Source: Escherichia phage Lidtsur
Direction: 5' to 3' (one strand)
Length of the DNA stretch: 42,291 nt
Sequence record: NC_048177.1
Numbering within the stretch: position 1 is the stretch's first letter; every line of letters starts with the position of its first letter. Both the position numbers and the translations under genes were made by a program. The notes beneath the pieces are model-generated. The model was not told where the DNA came from. It made no database searches and saw only the letters and a program-made list of their open reading frames with translations. Of the stretch, positions 5,965 through 42,291 are shown piece after piece.

Positions 5965-6032
5965 ATATTTACTCATGGCATTCTTGATGGATGCCATTAT
6001 GAAAGTATCTGTTAAGCACAACCGGAGGAAAT

Positions 6033-17314: not shown

Positions 17315-19747
17315 ATGATGGATTTGCTGGCAGAACAGATTCGACTGGAAGAAGAAGCCCGCGCACGCCATCGCGCGGGGTGGTTAGACAACATCAAAGC
17401 AGCGATGGATGAAGGGCGGGCATCGGCTGTGCCGCTGTTGCAGCGTGCAATGGTTAAGGCTTATCCGACTGTCGAAGCAGCTATGCAGGAAATCCTGAAT
17501 GAGAATACTCGCGGCTTTGGTGCGCAGTACCGGACGCACATGCGGGAGATTGGGGTGAAGACCTGCGCTACTCTGGCGCTCAGCATGGCAATGTCAGGGG
17601 CGGTAGAGAAGGTCGCTGTTACGCAGCACCTACGCAGCATGGGGCAGGCTCTAATGGCTGAGGTGGTGTACCACAAAGCCTCAGCCAGAGGTGCGCGTGA
17701 AGCGGCTTACATGCAGCGTGTGGGGCAAGACGTTAAGCGCTCCAAGTCGAAGTCTCCCAATCACATCTACAACAAGGCCCGCGCATCGGCGGCTAACGTT
17801 GGGGTGCACATGGATGTGTTGCCTCAGCGTGCGCTCATCACAATCGGTAAGATGATGATGCGTGCAGTCGAACCAACAGGTCTGGTCAAGACTATCCGTA
17901 TCGGTGGCAGCGCCAGACAGCGTGGCACTGCACACTTCGCTCTGCATGATGATGTGATTATCATGCTCAACGACTGGATTAAGCTGCCCGATATGACAGT
18001 AGGCTGCTACCCAGTGATGATTATCCCGCCTGCGGAAATTAATCCCAATGGGCTTGGTGGTATGTGGCACTCTCCGGGGCAGGCGGCGACGTATCAGGCA
18101 ATCAGCCGACTGCGCCACAAAGAGTACCGCGCTCAGAAGGTAGACCCGCTACCCATTATCGAGCCGTGTATGATGCTCAGTGGCACGCCGTTCCGTATCA
18201 ATAAGATGGTGCTGGAGTTCCTACAAAACAACCACACTGGCGTTATGGGCCTGCCTGCTGCGCCAGTGGAACCTAAGCTGCCATTCACAATCCCGGAAGG
18301 TGTGAGCTTTGCTCAGTACATCAGCAGGTTCCCGCCTGAAATGCAGCAGAGGATGGACGCTGAGGCGCATGAATTTAAGGTTAAAACCCGCATGTACCAT
18401 AATGAGTACCGCAGGTTTACAACCAAGGTGCAGGCGCTCGGAAGTGCGCTGGCTGAGGCTAAGCGCTACTGTGCATACGAGCGTATCTACCTGCCGACAT
18501 ACGCCGACACTCGTGGCCGAATCTACTACGCATCGTCTCTGAATCCTCAAGGTATCGACGCAATAAGGGCGCTGCTAGAATTAGCCGACGCTGTGCCGCT
18601 TGGCAGTGAAGGGTTGTTCTGGCTGAAAGTGCATGTGGCCAACTGCTTCGGCTATGACGCCACTGACTTTGAAGACCGGGCGGCTTGGACTGACAAGACC
18701 CTGCCAAGACTTCGTGAAGCCTGCCGACTGCCGGAGGCTTACGACTCATTCTGGTCTGAGGCCGATAGTCCTCTGTGTGCATGGGCAGCTTCTGTAGAGC
18801 TGGTGCGTGCGCTGGATAGCGGCAACCCGGAAGAGTACCCGTGCCGCGTTGTTACGCAGTGGGATGCAACTTGCTCAGGTCTACAGCACCTGTCGGCTAT
18901 GCTCCGTGATGAGGTGGGCGGTGCTGCCGTCAACCTGATTAACTCGCCGGGGCGCAAAGCCGATATCTACCTCAAGACTGCTGACGCAGCAATGGCAGCA
19001 CTGCGCGAGTCTGAGGCATCCTGCAAGACTGAGCTGGGGCAGTGGCTGTTGAAGATTGGCATCCAGCGTGCGATGGCCAAGAAGCCTGTAATGACCTACG
19101 TTTACGGGGCAACCCGCCACGGTATGGTTGATTACTATGCCCTGTACCTGCGCGAGAACAACATCCCATTGCCTCCCGGACACAGCCTGTTCGAGTGTGC
19201 GATGTTCATTGCCGGGATTATGTGGGACGCTATACCGCGAGTGGTTCCTAAAGCGGCAGAGCTTATGGCTTGGTTGCAATCTCTGGCGACTATGGTGGCA
19301 GAGAAAGGAGAGTACGTTGAGGTGATAGCTCCGTCAGGCTTACGGATGGTTAATCTGTATCAGGCTTCGAAAGAGGCAGCTATGGGCCTGAACCTAATGG
19401 GTGTGCACGGCATTAAGATTAGGGAATGGCTGGATAAGCCGGACTCCCGTAAGTGTGCAGCAGCTATCTCACCCAACTTTGTGCACGCTATGGATGCCAG
19501 CCACATGATGAAAGTGCTGTGGGAAATGTGGAATAACGGGGTTTACATGGTGTCTATCCATGACTCCTTCGGCGTTGCGGCAGCACACGCTGGGCTGTTG
19601 CACAGAGTCATCCGTGAAAAATTCGTGCAGATGTACGAGGAACATGACCCTATTCAGCAACTTGCTGAAAGATATGGTGTTGAGCCTCCGGCTAAAGGCC
19701 AGTTGGATATCAAAGAGGTGCTGAAATCTACCAAGTTTTTCTGCTGA
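17315..19747 (+). CDS. single-subunit DNA-dependent RNA polymerase (T7-like)
   Basis: WDATCSGLQH (motif A), AKKPVMTYVYGATRHG (motif B) and VSIHDSFGV (motif C) parallel T7 RNAP catalytic motifs; 810 aa. Confidence 0.9.
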   Translation: MMDLLAEQIRLEEEARARHRAGWLDNIKAAMDEGRASAVPLLQRAMVKAYPTVEAAMQEILNENTRGFGAQYRTHMREIGVKTCATLALSMAMSGAVEKVAVTQHLRSMGQALMAEVVYHKASARGAREAAYMQRVGQDVKRSKSKSPNHIYNKARASAANVGVHMDVLPQRALITIGKMMMRAVEPTGLVKTIRIGGSARQRGTAHFALHDDVIIMLNDWIKLPDMTVGCYPVMIIPPAEINPNGLGGMWHSPGQAATYQAISRLRHKEYRAQKVDPLPIIEPCMMLSGTPFRINKMVLEFLQNNHTGVMGLPAAPVEPKLPFTIPEGVSFAQYISRFPPEMQQRMDAEAHEFKVKTRMYHNEYRRFTTKVQALGSALAEAKRYCAYERIYLPTYADTRGRIYYASSLNPQGIDAIRALLELADAVPLGSEGLFWLKVHVANCFGYDATDFEDRAAWTDKTLPRLREACRLPEAYDSFWSEADSPLCAWAASVELVRALDSGNPEEYPCRVVTQWDATCSGLQHLSAMLRDEVGGAAVNLINSPGRKADIYLKTADAAMAALRESEASCKTELGQWLLKIGIQRAMAKKPVMTYVYGATRHGMVDYYALYLRENNIPLPPGHSLFECAMFIAGIMWDAIPRVVPKAAELMAWLQSLATMVAEKGEYVEVIAPSGLRMVNLYQASKEAAMGLNLMGVHGIKIREWLDKPDSRKCAAAISPNFVHAMDASHMMKVLWEMWNNGVYMVSIHDSFGVAAAHAGLLHRVIREKFVQMYEEHDPIQQLAERYGVEPPAKGQLDIKEVLKSTKFFC

Positions 19748-19832
19748 AAAAAGTGTTATATTCTATTGACTTAAATGAAAGTAACTGAAAGTGGTATACC
19801 CTGTATGATTATCATCATTGAGAGAGTGACTC
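19748..19832 (+). promoter_or_regulatory. intergenic region between RNAP and late genes; candidate phage-RNAP late promoter
   Basis: One of only two non-coding gaps in the late half; AT-rich with TTGACT and GGTATACC elements; promoter consensus not determinable from one genome. Confidence 0.3.
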
Positions 19833-20015
19833 ATGAAAGAATCTCCAGTTGATAGAGTAACCTTCAACAAAGCTCAGTTAGCTTACCTTGAGAAACGGTT
19901 CGGTACGTGGTCTGATGTAGGTAAGACGATAGTACCAGAGACAAACCTGACTCAGCTCAATAGGGAAGCAGGTAAGCAAGAGGTGCTGGACTGTATCCGT
20001 GAGAGGACAGTGTAA
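19833..20015 (+). CDS. hypothetical protein (60 aa)
   Basis: Track ORF; GAGAGAG SD. Confidence 0.4.
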   Translation: MKESPVDRVTFNKAQLAYLEKRFGTWSDVGKTIVPETNLTQLNREAGKQEVLDCIRERTV

Positions 20016-20434
20016 TGAGAGTGACTGCTAAGGATAACCTACAACACACAACGATGCCTCTCGATATTAGGGAGGCTGTAGCTCAAGGTATTCAGCATGA
20101 GAGAACATGGTCTGACTTGCCTTGCGATGTGATTGTGGAAGAGATGTACAAAGCAACAGCCAACGGTTGCACAGATGTGTATGTCACAGATGATGACGAT
20201 TCACTGATGGGTGTAGCTCACATCGGTCAACTGTTCGATATCCATGTCGGCGATATGGCTGTAGTGATGGCCTCCTATGTGTGGCCTCAGTATCGTAATC
20301 GCGGAGTGATGCGTGCCATTCTCCGCGAGTTGAAGAAAGCTGCCCGCAGAGCCGGGTTGCGCTGGTGCGGTTACTCCCACATGGTACGTCCTTATGTTCA
20401 GGAGTACCGCTTTATTGATTTGGAGAAACCGTAA
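20015..20434 (+). CDS. hypothetical protein with weak GNAT acetyltransferase-like motif
   Basis: VWPQYRNRGVMRAILREL resembles the acetyl-CoA-binding motif A of GNAT enzymes; weak. Confidence 0.35.
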   Translation: MRVTAKDNLQHTTMPLDIREAVAQGIQHERTWSDLPCDVIVEEMYKATANGCTDVYVTDDDDSLMGVAHIGQLFDIHVGDMAVVMASYVWPQYRNRGVMRAILRELKKAARRAGLRWCGYSHMVRPYVQEYRFIDLEKP

Positions 20435-22274: not shown

Positions 22275-23510
22275 ATGACTGGTGAATACCAACCTACTGC
22301 CGCACACGCTCCCCAAAACGTACCCGCTGGCCCGACCTATACTCCCTCTGGTCACGGCGGTGCTGATTATGCTGGCGGCGGCCAAGTGGTACAGAACCCA
22401 GCGCTCGGACGCTTAGGCACTCCGATTGAACTTCCTCGCGGCGGCGCTACTCCGCAGCCGCAGGTTCCGTTCGCGCAACCGGGCCTGCTCCCGAATCAGG
22501 AGTACAACCCGTATGCACCACAACCACAGGGCAATCCATCTCCATACGCGCCTAGCCAGCAAGCCAACCCTTATGGCCCAGCGCAGATGCAAAGCCCTTA
22601 TGCGGCTCCGCCTATTCCGGTTAATGGGTATCCGCAACCGGGCGTCACGCCTCCGGGCCAAGTCGCTCCGGCGCAGCAGTTCCAGCAGCCGCAGGTAGCT
22701 CCGCAGCCTTACGCTTTCGACCCATATGGTCGCCAGCCACAGCCGCAGCAGCAACAGCAGCCGCAACCATTCCAGCAGCTACAGCAGCCTCAGCAGCAGC
22801 CACAGCAGCAGAAGCCTCAGATTCAGCCAGTGCTGGCTAATCAGAACCTGACGGCTGATAAGTTGGCACAGCAGGAGGGTGGCCTGACGCCGGAGCAGGT
22901 TGCACAGATTTTCCCTGACCAAACCAGTCAGGCAGTATTCCAAGGGATGGACACAATCGCTCGCGGTCATAACATCGACCTGCTGGCAGCGTTCGGTAGT
23001 GCGTACGAACGTCGTGACCCTACCCTCGTGAATGAGCGTTATCTTGCCCAGTTCGACCCGCAGACTGTTCAGATTTTGAAAGGCCAGTTCAGCGCGTTAG
23101 TAGCGGCAGGTGAGGCTCGTGATGCTCAGATTGAGCAGCAAGTCTACCAGATGGCTGGTGGTGAGCAGCGTTGGAATCTCGCGGTACAGGCATTCAATAC
23201 CGCAGCCGACAAGTCCACCATTGAGGCCGTCATCGCCGCCGTAAACTCCGGCGACCCGAATCAGGTTCATCTTGCCGTGAACACTATCCTCCAGTTCGTC
23301 GGCAAGCAAGGCAACATGATTCAGCGTAGTGGTCAAAGTTTGACTCCCGGTGGTGGAGGCCAAGCACCTCAAGAGGTGATGACCAACGAGGCGTTTCGCC
23401 AACACTTAACGTGGCTTGAGCAGGCATTCCCTGTTGGCTCTCCGCAGTACAACCAGCATTACAACGTACTGGTAGAGCAACGGAAGCAGGCTAAGGCATT
23501 GGGTTACTAA
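22275..23510 (+). CDS. scaffolding protein with extended Pro/Gln-rich low-complexity N-terminal half
   Basis: Between portal and capsid; residues ~50-185 are P/Q/Y-rich (QPQPQQQQQPQPFQQLQQPQQQPQQQ). Confidence 0.6.
   Translation: MTGEYQPTAAHAPQNVPAGPTYTPSGHGGADYAGGGQVVQNPALGRLGTPIELPRGGATPQPQVPFAQPGLLPNQEYNPYAPQPQGNPSPYAPSQQANPYGPAQMQSPYAAPPIPVNGYPQPGVTPPGQVAPAQQFQQPQVAPQPYAFDPYGRQPQPQQQQQPQPFQQLQQPQQQPQQQKPQIQPVLANQNLTADKLAQQEGGLTPEQVAQIFPDQTSQAVFQGMDTIARGHNIDLLAAFGSAYERRDPTLVNERYLAQFDPQTVQILKGQFSALVAAGEARDAQIEQQVYQMAGGEQRWNLAVQAFNTAADKSTIEAVIAAVNSGDPNQVHLAVNTILQFVGKQGNMIQRSGQSLTPGGGGQAPQEVMTNEAFRQHLTWLEQAFPVGSPQYNQHYNVLVEQRKQAKALGY
22735..22822 (+). repeat. CAG/CCG-rich simple-sequence tract inside scaffolding gene
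   Basis: cagcagcaacagcagccgcaacc...cagcagcctcagcagcagccacagcagcag encodes the poly-Q/P segment. Confidence 0.7.
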
Positions 23511-40294: not shown

Positions 40295-40830
40295 TGACTA
40301 ACTTTGAAATCTGTATGAAGTTCACCGGGCTGGCTGAGGGTGGCTATACCAAGCTGCCCGGTGACACTGGAGGGGAAACCAATCATGGAATTAGTGACGC
40401 TCGTGATGGAAAGCTGGATGGTCGAGCTTGCGGTGTCCCTACTGGGCTTGGCGGGACTATTTGTGTTCCTATCAAGCAGCTCACCAAAGAGCAAGCCGAA
40501 GCTATCTATCGCCGGGACTACTTCACCCCAATCCGTGGTGACGAGTTACACCCTGCGATTGCATGTGCCGTGTTCGACTTCGGTGTCAACTCCGGCGTCG
40601 CCCGCGCAGCTAAAGCTCTACAGCGGGTATGCGGTGTTGCACAGGACGGTGTTATCGGTGCTGCAACCGTGGCAGCGGCCAAGCGTCTGGAACCTCACTC
40701 CGCAGCAGCATCCATCTGTGACATTCGTATTGAGTTCCTAAAGGCTTCTACAGCCCCGACAATCGTTCGGTATAGGGATGCCTTGGTTGCTCGTGCAAAA
40801 CGCTGTAGCGCTTACTGTGCGACGTTATAG
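40294..40830 (+). CDS. endolysin, GH108-type N-terminal domain
   Basis: FTGLAEGGYTKLPGDTGGETNHGIS matches the EGGY...GG.T..GI signature of GH108 muramidases; last gene before the terminal non-coding region; no N-terminal TMD. Confidence 0.75.
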   Translation: MTNFEICMKFTGLAEGGYTKLPGDTGGETNHGISDARDGKLDGRACGVPTGLGGTICVPIKQLTKEQAEAIYRRDYFTPIRGDELHPAIACAVFDFGVNSGVARAAKALQRVCGVAQDGVIGAATVAAAKRLEPHSAAASICDIRIEFLKASTAPTIVRYRDALVARAKRCSAYCATL

Positions 40831-40899
40831 GGGCATTGAAAGCTGGGACATTGAACAGGCGTAATACCCCGGCTTGAAAATTGACTATTTGTGCGTGGG

Positions 40900-41410
40900 C
40901 CTCCCTCGACTCGAAGGAGCGCCTGCGCCCCCGTACGCCTGTGCGCGTGCGCGTGCATGACGTGTGCGCATTATGCGCGTGTGCCTGCGCGTGCGGTATT
41001 GCTCGCGTGCGTGCGGTAACAGCTCGCGCGTGCCCGTTTCCATTGTCGCGGTGTGGCGTGCTGTGCTCTGCGCGGTGCTGTGCCACTGCTGGCTGTGCCA
41101 CTGCTACCACTGGACGCGCCTGCGCTGGCCTGCGCTGGTATCGGCTCCGGTCGTGGCGGGTATCTATCTCTTTTGCCTGCGTGCTGCGCCTGCGTCCTGT
41201 CACTGCCTGCTAGCGCCTGCTATCTGCCTGCGCTCGCCTGCCTCCAGCTACTCCAGCTAATCGCGTCACTGCTACTAGCCGTTGCTAGCCGTGATACTTG
41301 CTATCCGTTCGCGTTCTCTCGCTATCCACTGCGTGTCCAGCTCGCTCCGCTCCGCGCTCCGCTACCGCACTGCGTGCTGCGTCGCTTACGCTGCGTATCG
41401 CTTACAGCTT
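40900..41410 (+). repeat. A-depleted GC-rich short-repeat tract, probable terminal-repeat / packaging region
   Basis: About 500 bp almost free of A on the + strand, built from reiterated TGCGCG, CCTGCGC, GCTGCG, GCTCCGC units; non-coding; sits between last and first gene. Confidence 0.5.
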
Positions 41411-41570
41411 ATACTGTAACAGTTACTTTCATTTACTCACTGATTTATAAAGAGTTTTAGACGGTTATTAGCTACTGATTGAGCTATTCAAGTATCTATC
41501 CAATCAAATATTTAATCCTATTGAATACATACACTTACCTACATTTTGAGCTATTCAGTGAAAATAATTC

Positions 41571-41599
41571 TTGCAATGCTGTTTGTGATTTGCTGTAAT
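41571..41599 (+). promoter_or_regulatory. sigma70-type early promoter candidate P1
   Basis: -35 TTGCAA (41571-41576), 17-bp spacer, -10 TGTAAT (41594-41599). Confidence 0.55.
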
Positions 41600-41675
41600 T
41601 CATCTCGCCGGGTAGCAATGCAGCGCTACACGGTGGGCTAGATGGTTAGCCAGCTCTTTAACAATCTGGAGTGTA

Positions 41676-41704
41676 TTGACAAGCGAGTCTCACTATGCTG
41701 TAAT
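41676..41704 (+). promoter_or_regulatory. sigma70-type early promoter candidate P2
   Basis: -35 TTGACA (41676-41681), 17-bp spacer, -10 TGTAAT (41699-41704). Confidence 0.65.
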
Positions 41705-41756
41705 ACGCTCCAGATTGACAGGGCAAGCAAGCCTGACAGTCAGTAGTAAAAAGTGG

Positions 41757-41786
41757 TTGACAAGCCGATTCAAGATGTGATGTAAT
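41757..41786 (+). promoter_or_regulatory. sigma70-type early promoter candidate P3
   Basis: -35 TTGACA (41757-41762), 18-bp spacer, -10 TGTAAT (41781-41786); P2 and P3 share the TTGACAAGC core. Confidence 0.6.
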
Positions 41787-42291
41787 CGGCACCGAGTTGA
41801 AAGGATGAAAAGCATCCTGCTCTGAGTGAACGCAAACTGGCCGCGTAGTGTCACGGCTCACTGGGTATCCGCCGCAGGTTGGAACTGGGTGAGGCATCGC
41901 CGAAAGGCAACGGTATCGCAACATTGCTAACGCCGTAGGGGTAGCGCCCGATGCAGGGAACAGAGAAGCGCGATAGACGCAGCGCAGTATCAGTACAATC
42001 CCAAACGTCTTATAAGCATTGTAGACAGTAGGGGACGTAGCAAAACACACTCGACTTTGAGCTGGCGCGTAGCAGGTTGCGCAGGGTATGACTGAGTGTT
42101 GAGCGGAGTCGCTGAAAGATACTTGAATCCGATGATAAATGCCGGATTATGCGAAATGGGCGGGGCGATTTTTCAGGGTAGTGAATCCGACAAGCCATTC
42201 CATGCCGAACAAACCTAGTACGCTACTGGTACGGCGCGTCACAATGGGTTCACTATCCACCTGAAAATAGCCAACAACTGGAGAAATAACT

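Follow-up and report, generated by a model that had tools for sequence, protein, structure and literature searches.

A direct repeat ahead of the first early promoter of Escherichia phage Lidtsur probably reflects lineage-restricted sequence turnover in an AT-rich spacer

Results

Layout of the left end

The DNA analysed here, referred to throughout as the window, is the whole 42,291-nucleotide sequence of record NC_048177.1 (Escherichia phage Lidtsur), and in its left-end region it is 81-92% identical to phages of the genus Bonnellvirus (Autographiviridae, phiKMV-like), among them J8-65, smaasur and usur. The J8-65 record, which annotates a repeat_region at 1-259, a 259-bp terminal repeat, has its first position aligned to 40906 of the window. 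The first gene of the window, encoding a SAM lyase (PF23780), begins at position 1, and this, together with the alignment to J8-65, identifies the window as the whole genome rotated to gene 1. In the order of the sequence, the endolysin gene ends at 40830, ahead of the terminal-repeat homologue, and GC-rich short repeats fill the interval from this homologue to ~41400, followed by an AT-rich segment, three tandem host-type promoters (P1-P3) and a leader of ~500 nt (Table 1). The direct repeat that is the subject of this work lies in the AT-rich segment, ~570-650 bp from the true left end.

Taken together, the terminal-repeat homologue and the short-repeat region (40906-41400) contain 8.9% A on the plus strand, and C exceeds G over 41166-41400 (GC skew -0.25). 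Because of this base bias a transcript from the leftward phage promoter-like element described below would contain little U and, over its first ~250 nt (41166-41400), much G, which could conceivably have a bearing on R-loop formation, priming or junction processing. An Rfam search of 40800-42291 returned sub-threshold miRNA noise only, and in the literature searched we found no published description of the Bonnellvirus spacer.

Table 1. Features of the left end and related sites, in window coordinates; positions relative to P1 refer to its predicted start.
Feature	Position	Strand	Basis or remark
Element E in sense orientation, in the spacer that separates the RNA polymerase gene from the late genes	19773..19799	+	exact 15-mer at 19773-87
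Homologue of the J8-65 direct terminal repeat, genome left end	40906..41165		alignment to the J8-65 record
Element E, AAATGAAAGTAACTG ... GTATA, predicted to point to the genome end; left boundary of the AT-rich spacer	41434-41409	-	copies and co-variation
Extended imperfect unit, distal, TTAGCTACTGATTGAGCTATTCA	41468..41490	+	23 nt, 83% identity to the proximal unit
Distal 12-mer, TTGAGCTATTCA	41479..41490	+	about -127..-116 of the predicted P1 start
AATCAAATATTTA, exact IHF-consensus match between the copies	41502..41514	+	consensus WATCAANNNNTTR; about -104..-92 of P1
Degenerate element E, AAATGTAGGTAAGTG, 3 mismatches, abutting the proximal 12-mer	41532..41546	-	15-mer search
Extended imperfect unit, proximal, TTACCTACATTTTGAGCTATTCA	41535..41557	+	5' half overlaps the degenerate minus-strand phage-promoter-like copy
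Proximal 12-mer, TTGAGCTATTCA	41546..41557	+	11-mer part at -59..-49 of P1
A-tract, GTGAAAATAAT, candidate proximal UP subsite	41558..41568	+	-48..-38 of P1; identity 0.955
Predicted promoter P1: -35 TTGCAA (41571-76), 17-bp spacer, TGc and -10 TGTAAT (41594-99)	41571..41599	+	hexamer conservation
Predicted promoter P2: TTGACA-17-TGTAAT	41676..41704	+	read from sequence
Predicted promoter P3: TTGACA-18-TGTAAT	41757..41786	+	read from sequence

Early promoters P1-P3

P1-P3 were identified by eye and by conservation, not by a consensus scan. A simple promoter and terminator consensus scan of 40800-42291 called nothing, and it misses these promoters because it demands A at position 2 of the -10 hexamer, where they have G. 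Among 26 relatives the -35 hexamer of P1 has an identity of 0.99 to the window and the -10 hexamer an identity of 1.0, with a variable spacer (0.65), and the record of LIMEzero, our outgroup, annotates the homologous sites as promoters. The stretch 41571-41786 is thus predicted to hold three early promoters of host type, arranged in tandem close to the left terminal repeat. The preliminary description of this DNA had put the repeat just upstream of P1, and that placement holds. Throughout, the -35 hexamer of P1 is placed at -35..-30, with the start predicted from the hexamers.

All early promoters that we read in both genera have TGTAAT preceded by TGn, the second base of the -10 hexamer, normally invariant, being G in each (41594-99, 41699-704 and 41781-86 in the window; 837-842 and 1429-1434 in LIMEzero, L119). 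P2 lies inside the loop of an inverted repeat (41662-41717; 16-bp stem, 94% complementary), and the RNA between P1 and P3 (within 41606-41792) folds far better than shuffled sequence (z = -5.0, with 0 of 200 shuffles as stable); the hairpin enclosing P2 might serve RNase III-type processing or act like an attenuator. An extra sigma70-like promoter using the TTGAGC of the repeat as its -35 was considered by eye and discarded, there being no acceptable -10 or spacing on either strand.

A leftward phage promoter-like element

The AT-rich spacer is bounded on its left by element E, whose 15-mer AAATGAAAGTAACTG lies on the minus strand at 41434-41420 and has an exact second copy on the plus strand in the only other AT-rich intergenic spacer. 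This second spacer (~19700-19870, the only other place in the window of similar AT-richness) separates the RNA polymerase gene (17315-19747, confirmed by Pfam PF00940) from a long late gene block, and a third copy with 3 mismatches is found on the plus strand at 5997-6011, downstream of a hairpin, with a gene starting 22 bp further on. At the 3-mismatch level the window holds 6 AAATGAAAGTAACTG-like matches against 0.58 expected. The element has a variable core with four variants by lineage (TAA, TGT, TGA and CTA), which is identical at the left-end and post-RNA-polymerase loci within all seven of the genomes compared (7/7); HHU8 has a core variant of its own, the same at all three loci. Identity to the window among the relatives is 0.87.

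This pattern suggests that element E behaves as a promoter for the phage's own polymerase. Two sense copies sit upstream of gene blocks, and the left-end copy is for this reason read as oriented leftwards; as element E then points left and P1 right, the AT-rich segment would be a spacer between divergent promoters, with an antisense phage-specific promoter at the left end that shares its motif with the predicted promoter following the RNA polymerase gene. We had initially read TATCACTATAG in the relatives as a rightward, T7-type phiOL-like promoter. That orientation was rejected since the J8-65-clade copies share ATGAAAGTAACTG, which is on the other strand, since the other two copies are sense-oriented upstream of gene blocks, and since the arrangement in phage LUZ19 is also antisense.

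Anatomy of the repeat

A search of both strands of the window allowing up to one mismatch found the 11-mer TGAGCTATTCA at two sites, both exact and both on the plus strand (41480-41490 and 41547-41557), with a start-to-start distance of 67 bp. The two 11-bp copies 67 bp apart that had been described at the outset are therefore real, and the longest exact match is even one of 12 bp, TTGAGCTATTCA, within a unit that stretches to 23 nt at lower identity. Relative to P1 the distal 11-mer occupies -126..-116 and the proximal one -59..-49. GC content is ~28-29% around the repeat (29% over the 171 bp of 41400-41570), and the lowest-GC 150-bp windows of the whole sequence (0.28-0.30) all fall within 41401-41600, bearing out the earlier statement that the repeat lies in the most AT-rich part of the window.

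When the 171-bp AT-rich segment was simulated with a Markov-1 model, 1.4% of runs produced an exact 11-mer repeat and 0.5% a 12-mer; the pair is real, and pure coincidence is improbable as its source. It is not exceptional for this genome, however, because close repeats of at least 11 bp no more than 100 bp apart number 8 in the real window against 0.78 expected, of which six lie inside ORFs on an approximate gene map; short local repeats are thus ~10 times commoner in the genome than the Markov model predicts. Repetition of another kind is seen at 22672-22820, where CAGCAGCC-type repeats with a 9-bp period lie within a coding region and specify a Gln/Pro-rich stretch; by synteny with J8-65 this region probably encodes the scaffolding protein. 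The 3' end of the distal copy also has an inverted counterpart in the early leader 613 nt away, as part of a 15-nt inverted repeat (41486-41500 versus 42114-42128, 93% complementary), which is probably due to chance because its upstream arm lies outside the P1 transcript.

Conservation of the two copies

Twenty-eight distinct left ends were aligned, comprising 15 relatives from GenBank, a contig from IMG/VR, 11 assemblies of metagenomes or runs found through SAM-lyase homologues, and the window itself; identities to the window were computed per feature over 26 relatives. An IMG/VR scan with the P1 upstream pattern returned 79 loci, among them two true relatives (J8-65 and one relative without the proximal block), a JGI metagenome scan gave no match, and exact-protein look-ups with the SAMase and the endolysin of the window returned no record.

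Both exact copies are present in the window and in a single relative, L105 (2 of the 28 distinct sequences, 1 of the 27 relatives). The preliminary description had named conservation in related phages as a check on a functional pair, and lack of conservation together with lack of effect on promoter activity as grounds for giving it up; for the pair, lack of conservation is largely what we see. The proximal 11-mer is exact in 10 of the 27 relatives, carries one or two changes in 7 and is replaced by a clean 11-bp gap in the remaining 10, HHU8 and LF82-23 among them. The distal site is exact in L105 only, and the other members of the J8-65 clade form a graded series, from TAAGCTACGCA in J8-65 through TAAGCTATGCA in the smaasur-like phages and TAAGCTATTCA in L107-109 to the TGAGCTATTCA of the window and L105, the nearest relatives having TAAGCTAYGCA at this place. 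With identities to the window of 0.51 for the distal 12-mer and 0.62, with 32% gaps, for the proximal one, the repeat copies fall within the least conserved stretches of the spacer. The identity of the copies may have arisen by a few point changes, or by conversion, at a distal site that was already similar.

The conserved ATCAAA core between the copies stands 68 bp from the -35 hexamer where the proximal block is present (18 sequences) and 56 bp from it where the block is absent (10 sequences); in LIMEzero the distance is 67 bp. Since the outgroup has the long spacing, the proximal block is probably ancestral, and these distances make its loss, which amounts to about one helical turn, a derived and tolerated change. 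The same spacer holds a different and longer direct repeat, (CT)AATGATTACAGTAACTTAT, in 13 of the 15 GenBank relatives, with its copies 79-80 bp apart, and this repeat is decayed in the clade of J8-65 and the window; it follows that repeats come and go in the spacer. Where present (L003, L006, L009, L012 and others) it is exact over 11-21 bp and lies at about -168/-88 or -156/-77 of the respective P1. In addition, every relative that keeps the proximal block has a heptamer of the CTAT(T/K)CA type at three homologous positions, ~12 and 55 bp apart.

L105 (Logan SRR21707704), a metagenome assembly of 43,194 bp, is a mosaic relative, its SAM lyase sharing 89% identity with that of the window. It is 100% identical to the window over the 200 bp of 41373-41572, between flanks of 87-91% identity with indels. 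This island may be a recently exchanged module or may reflect strong constraint, and recombination would explain it equally well.

Conserved sequences beside and between the copies

The IHF consensus WATCAANNNNTTR has two matches in the window, both strands counted, and the only one in the AT-rich segment is AATCAAATATTTA, which lies between the copies. The local chance of such a match is 0.019, its identity to the window among the relatives is 0.94, and its core ATCAAA is kept even in LIMEzero at a near-equal distance to the -35 hexamer. The other exact match, TATCAAAGGCTTA (5951-63), stands 34 bp before the middle phage-promoter-like copy (46 bp start to start), just before a hairpin with a 7-bp stem (5977-5999).

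Immediately upstream of P1, the conserved A-tract includes GAAAATAAT, which by eye agrees with the proximal UP consensus AAAAAARNR at 7 of 9 positions and is therefore not an exact match; exact consensus sequences for UP, Fis, DnaA and CRP have no match in the AT-rich segment (41400-41570). The two repeat copies fit none of the UP, IHF, Fis, DnaA and CRP consensus patterns. For the UP consensus (distal AWWWWWTTTTT, proximal AAAAAARNR) the 11-mer has G or C at 4 of its 11 positions, and of the two copies the proximal lies inside the UP range of ~-38..-60 and the distal outside it, as counted from the predicted start. The copies likewise do not make up a conserved or co-varying operator pair, the distal varying independently of the proximal, and they lack the composition of iterons, which comprise at least three regular copies of 17-22 bp, an unwinding element and initiator or DnaA sites. 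A candidate DnaA box, TTATCCACT, noticed in some relatives was set aside, being neither conserved there nor matched by the consensus in the window.

Discussion

We propose that the repeat is the product of lineage-restricted, ordinary sequence turnover in a generic AT-rich spacer and not a dedicated pair of protein sites, a reading to which we assign a probability of about 0.6. Small duplications, deletions and point changes would have produced a lineage-specific repeat in the spacer between the divergent promoters. The proximal 11-bp block at -59..-49, probably ancestral, would have been cleanly lost in about a third of the genus, and the distal sequence, homologous and formerly only similar, would have become identical to the proximal one in the lineage of the window. 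The spacer itself would serve as generic A+T-rich upstream DNA for the host RNA polymerase, in the portion of the genome that enters the cell first, with the A-tract at -48..-38 contacted by the C-terminal domain of the alpha subunit (alpha-CTD) and the DNA bent at the IHF-consensus core at about -98; the proximal block would be at most filler at the position of the distal UP subsite. The location, anatomy and conservation pattern of the repeat are direct observations, and the identity of the promoters, the involvement of alpha-CTD and IHF and the lack of function of the repeats are suggested by position, consensus and conservation. Three observations sit less easily with neutral turnover: the 12-mer repeat is locally improbable, the complete identity of the L105 island between more divergent flanks could reflect selection, and the heptamers at three homologous positions would fit a degenerate repeated site.

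The preliminary description had suggested that the copies might be UP-element-like enhancers, and in one respect the idea stands, as the region does contain a conserved UP-like A-tract with the proximal copy at the distal-subsite position, directly upstream of it; the distal copy is too far away. The proximal copy might accordingly be a functional distal UP subsite of P1, bound by a second alpha-CTD, with the distal copy incidental. UP elements (Estrem et al. 1998/1999, cited in PMC7552054) provide upstream alpha-CTD contacts, which are common at strong phage early promoters, and the established reliance of such promoters on these contacts lends the idea some weight, as does the retention of the block in 17 of the 27 relatives and at the same spacing in LIMEzero. 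Even so we consider it unlikely. The sequence fits AWWWWWTTTTT poorly (no match in the scan and ~5 of 11 positions by eye), the block is deleted in 10 relatives with intact P1 hexamers and carries one or two mutations in 7 others, and the proximal copy is less conserved than every neighbouring functional island.

The alternative suggestion, that the copies are sites for a host nucleoid protein or a phage regulator, survives in part, in that the segment contains a conserved exact IHF match, although the copies themselves fit no consensus. In its fullest form both copies would bind one host nucleoid-associated or transcription factor, or a phage early regulator, and an IHF-type bend would juxtapose them so as to switch the divergent promoters on or off. 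The identical 12-mers do flank the conserved IHF consensus, the spacer of 200 bp is invariant between the window and L105, and related heptamers stand at homologous positions in the relatives that keep the block. Against this, the pair is restricted to two distinct sequences and shows no co-variation, the proximal site is absent from 10 relatives, and the motif is without dyad symmetry and matches none of the consensus motifs tested; furthermore, 67 bp corresponds to ~6.4 helical turns, so that the copies face different sides of the helix. We regard a shared factor as quite improbable.

Very unlikely, in our estimation, is that the 23-nt units descend, in decayed form, from duplications of the leftward phage-promoter module, acting as weak extra promoters or decoys or persisting as inert relics. 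The minus strand of the proximal unit carries AAATGTAGGTAAGTG, 3 positions away from AAATGAAAGTAACTG, among an excess of such matches in the window, and this degenerate copy aligns with the proximal copy of the ...ACAGTAACTTAT repeat of the relatives. The 11-mer itself, however, falls outside the promoter-like part, and nothing corresponding to it stands beside the three good copies of element E; the distal unit is only weakly similar to the element, and the mismatches affect the core, which does not vary among the good copies. More speculative still is a bent nucleoprotein complex in which degenerate repeats (the 12-mer here, AATGATTACAGTAACTTAT in most relatives) and the IHF-type core couple the divergent promoters. 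If true, the complex would be a switch from rightward early transcription by the host polymerase to leftward antisense transcription by the phage polymerase across the genome junction, and the repeat sequence would be free to drift as long as two matching sites flank the bend. That the repeats are replication-origin iterons in an AT-rich unwinding region is extremely improbable: T7 does define replication origins by a promoter next to an AT-rich region, and 29% GC, direct repeats, an IHF-like site and a nearby phage promoter are all found here, but there are just two 12-bp copies, neither conserved nor regularly phased, with no DnaA box nearby, and the AT-rich DNA is upstream, not downstream, of the leftward phage promoter.

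Turnover in a generic spacer is thus the reading that we carry forward, and the setting in which it would take place is a left end of the phiKMV/LUZ19 type, with a looser resemblance to that of T7 with UP-like upstream DNA. The T7 left end consists of a terminal repeat, short repeat arrays, phiOL, AT-rich DNA and the A1-A3 promoters, and the overall order of elements is the same here. By analogy with T7 the region, entering the cell first, is presumed to capture host RNA polymerase rapidly. The two differ in that the phage promoter is predicted to point leftward here whereas phiOL points rightward, in the TGTAAT -10 hexamers with their TGn extension, and in the absence of sequence similarity to T7. 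The candidate upstream elements likewise compare with known systems only in part. As at rrnB P1-type UP elements, -38..-59 is A+T-rich with a conserved A-tract at -48..-38, and the proximal copy occupies the position of the distal subsite; unlike UP elements, the 11-mer is dispensable in a third of the relatives as well as poor in consensus fit, and the distal copy is far outside their range. The exact, conserved IHF consensus in AT-rich DNA ~100 bp upstream of a strong early promoter recalls lambda pL and Mu Pe, which are assisted by IHF, except that the candidate site here lies between repeats, not within them.

The parallel with LUZ19 is closer. In that phage a mapped antisense phage-specific promoter, P001, lies upstream of the host promoters P002-P006 (Putzeys et al. 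2024, PMC10914365), further phage promoters directly follow the polymerase gene (PMC10914365), and a matching motif was found computationally at the corresponding positions in 15 of 15 other Phikmvvirus species (PMC10914365). The window repeats this arrangement: a terminal repeat is followed by a predicted leftward promoter for the phage RNA polymerase and then by rightward early promoters of the sigma70 type in tandem, the start sites here being predicted ones. In both, more copies of the phage-promoter motif come right after the RNA polymerase gene, and the genome has few phage promoters. The genus, the host and the motif differ (AAATGAAAGTAACTG-type here versus GgtTATGTCACacACAnnGG in LUZ19), and the LUZ19 publication (PMC10914365) describes no spacer repeats. 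A further point of contact is a GNAT acetyltransferase gene of the window (20015-20434, plus strand; PF00583, E = 1.7e-6), two genes after the RNA polymerase gene. Its counterpart in LIMEzero, ORF36, is listed as a weak homologue of LUZ19 Rac (PMC7552054), and Rac of LUZ19 triggers cleavage of the alpha subunit of the host polymerase (PMC7552054). Were the GNAT protein active as Rac, UP-dependent promoters such as P1 would be preferentially silenced.

The preliminary description is thus partly supported: it read the region rightly, but the repeats are not what is constrained there. The repeat itself matters little, being lineage-specific in a weakly constrained spacer, and its history guards against over-reading such repeats as operators or iterons. 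The comparison does single out the constrained bases upstream of the first Bonnellvirus early promoter, which are the A-tract at -48..-38 and the IHF-consensus core ~100 bp upstream. Finally, the Bonnellviruses appear to share with LUZ19 a leftward phage-polymerase promoter facing the genome end, and this arrangement would offer concrete targets for promoter engineering and for tests of antisense-transcript function.
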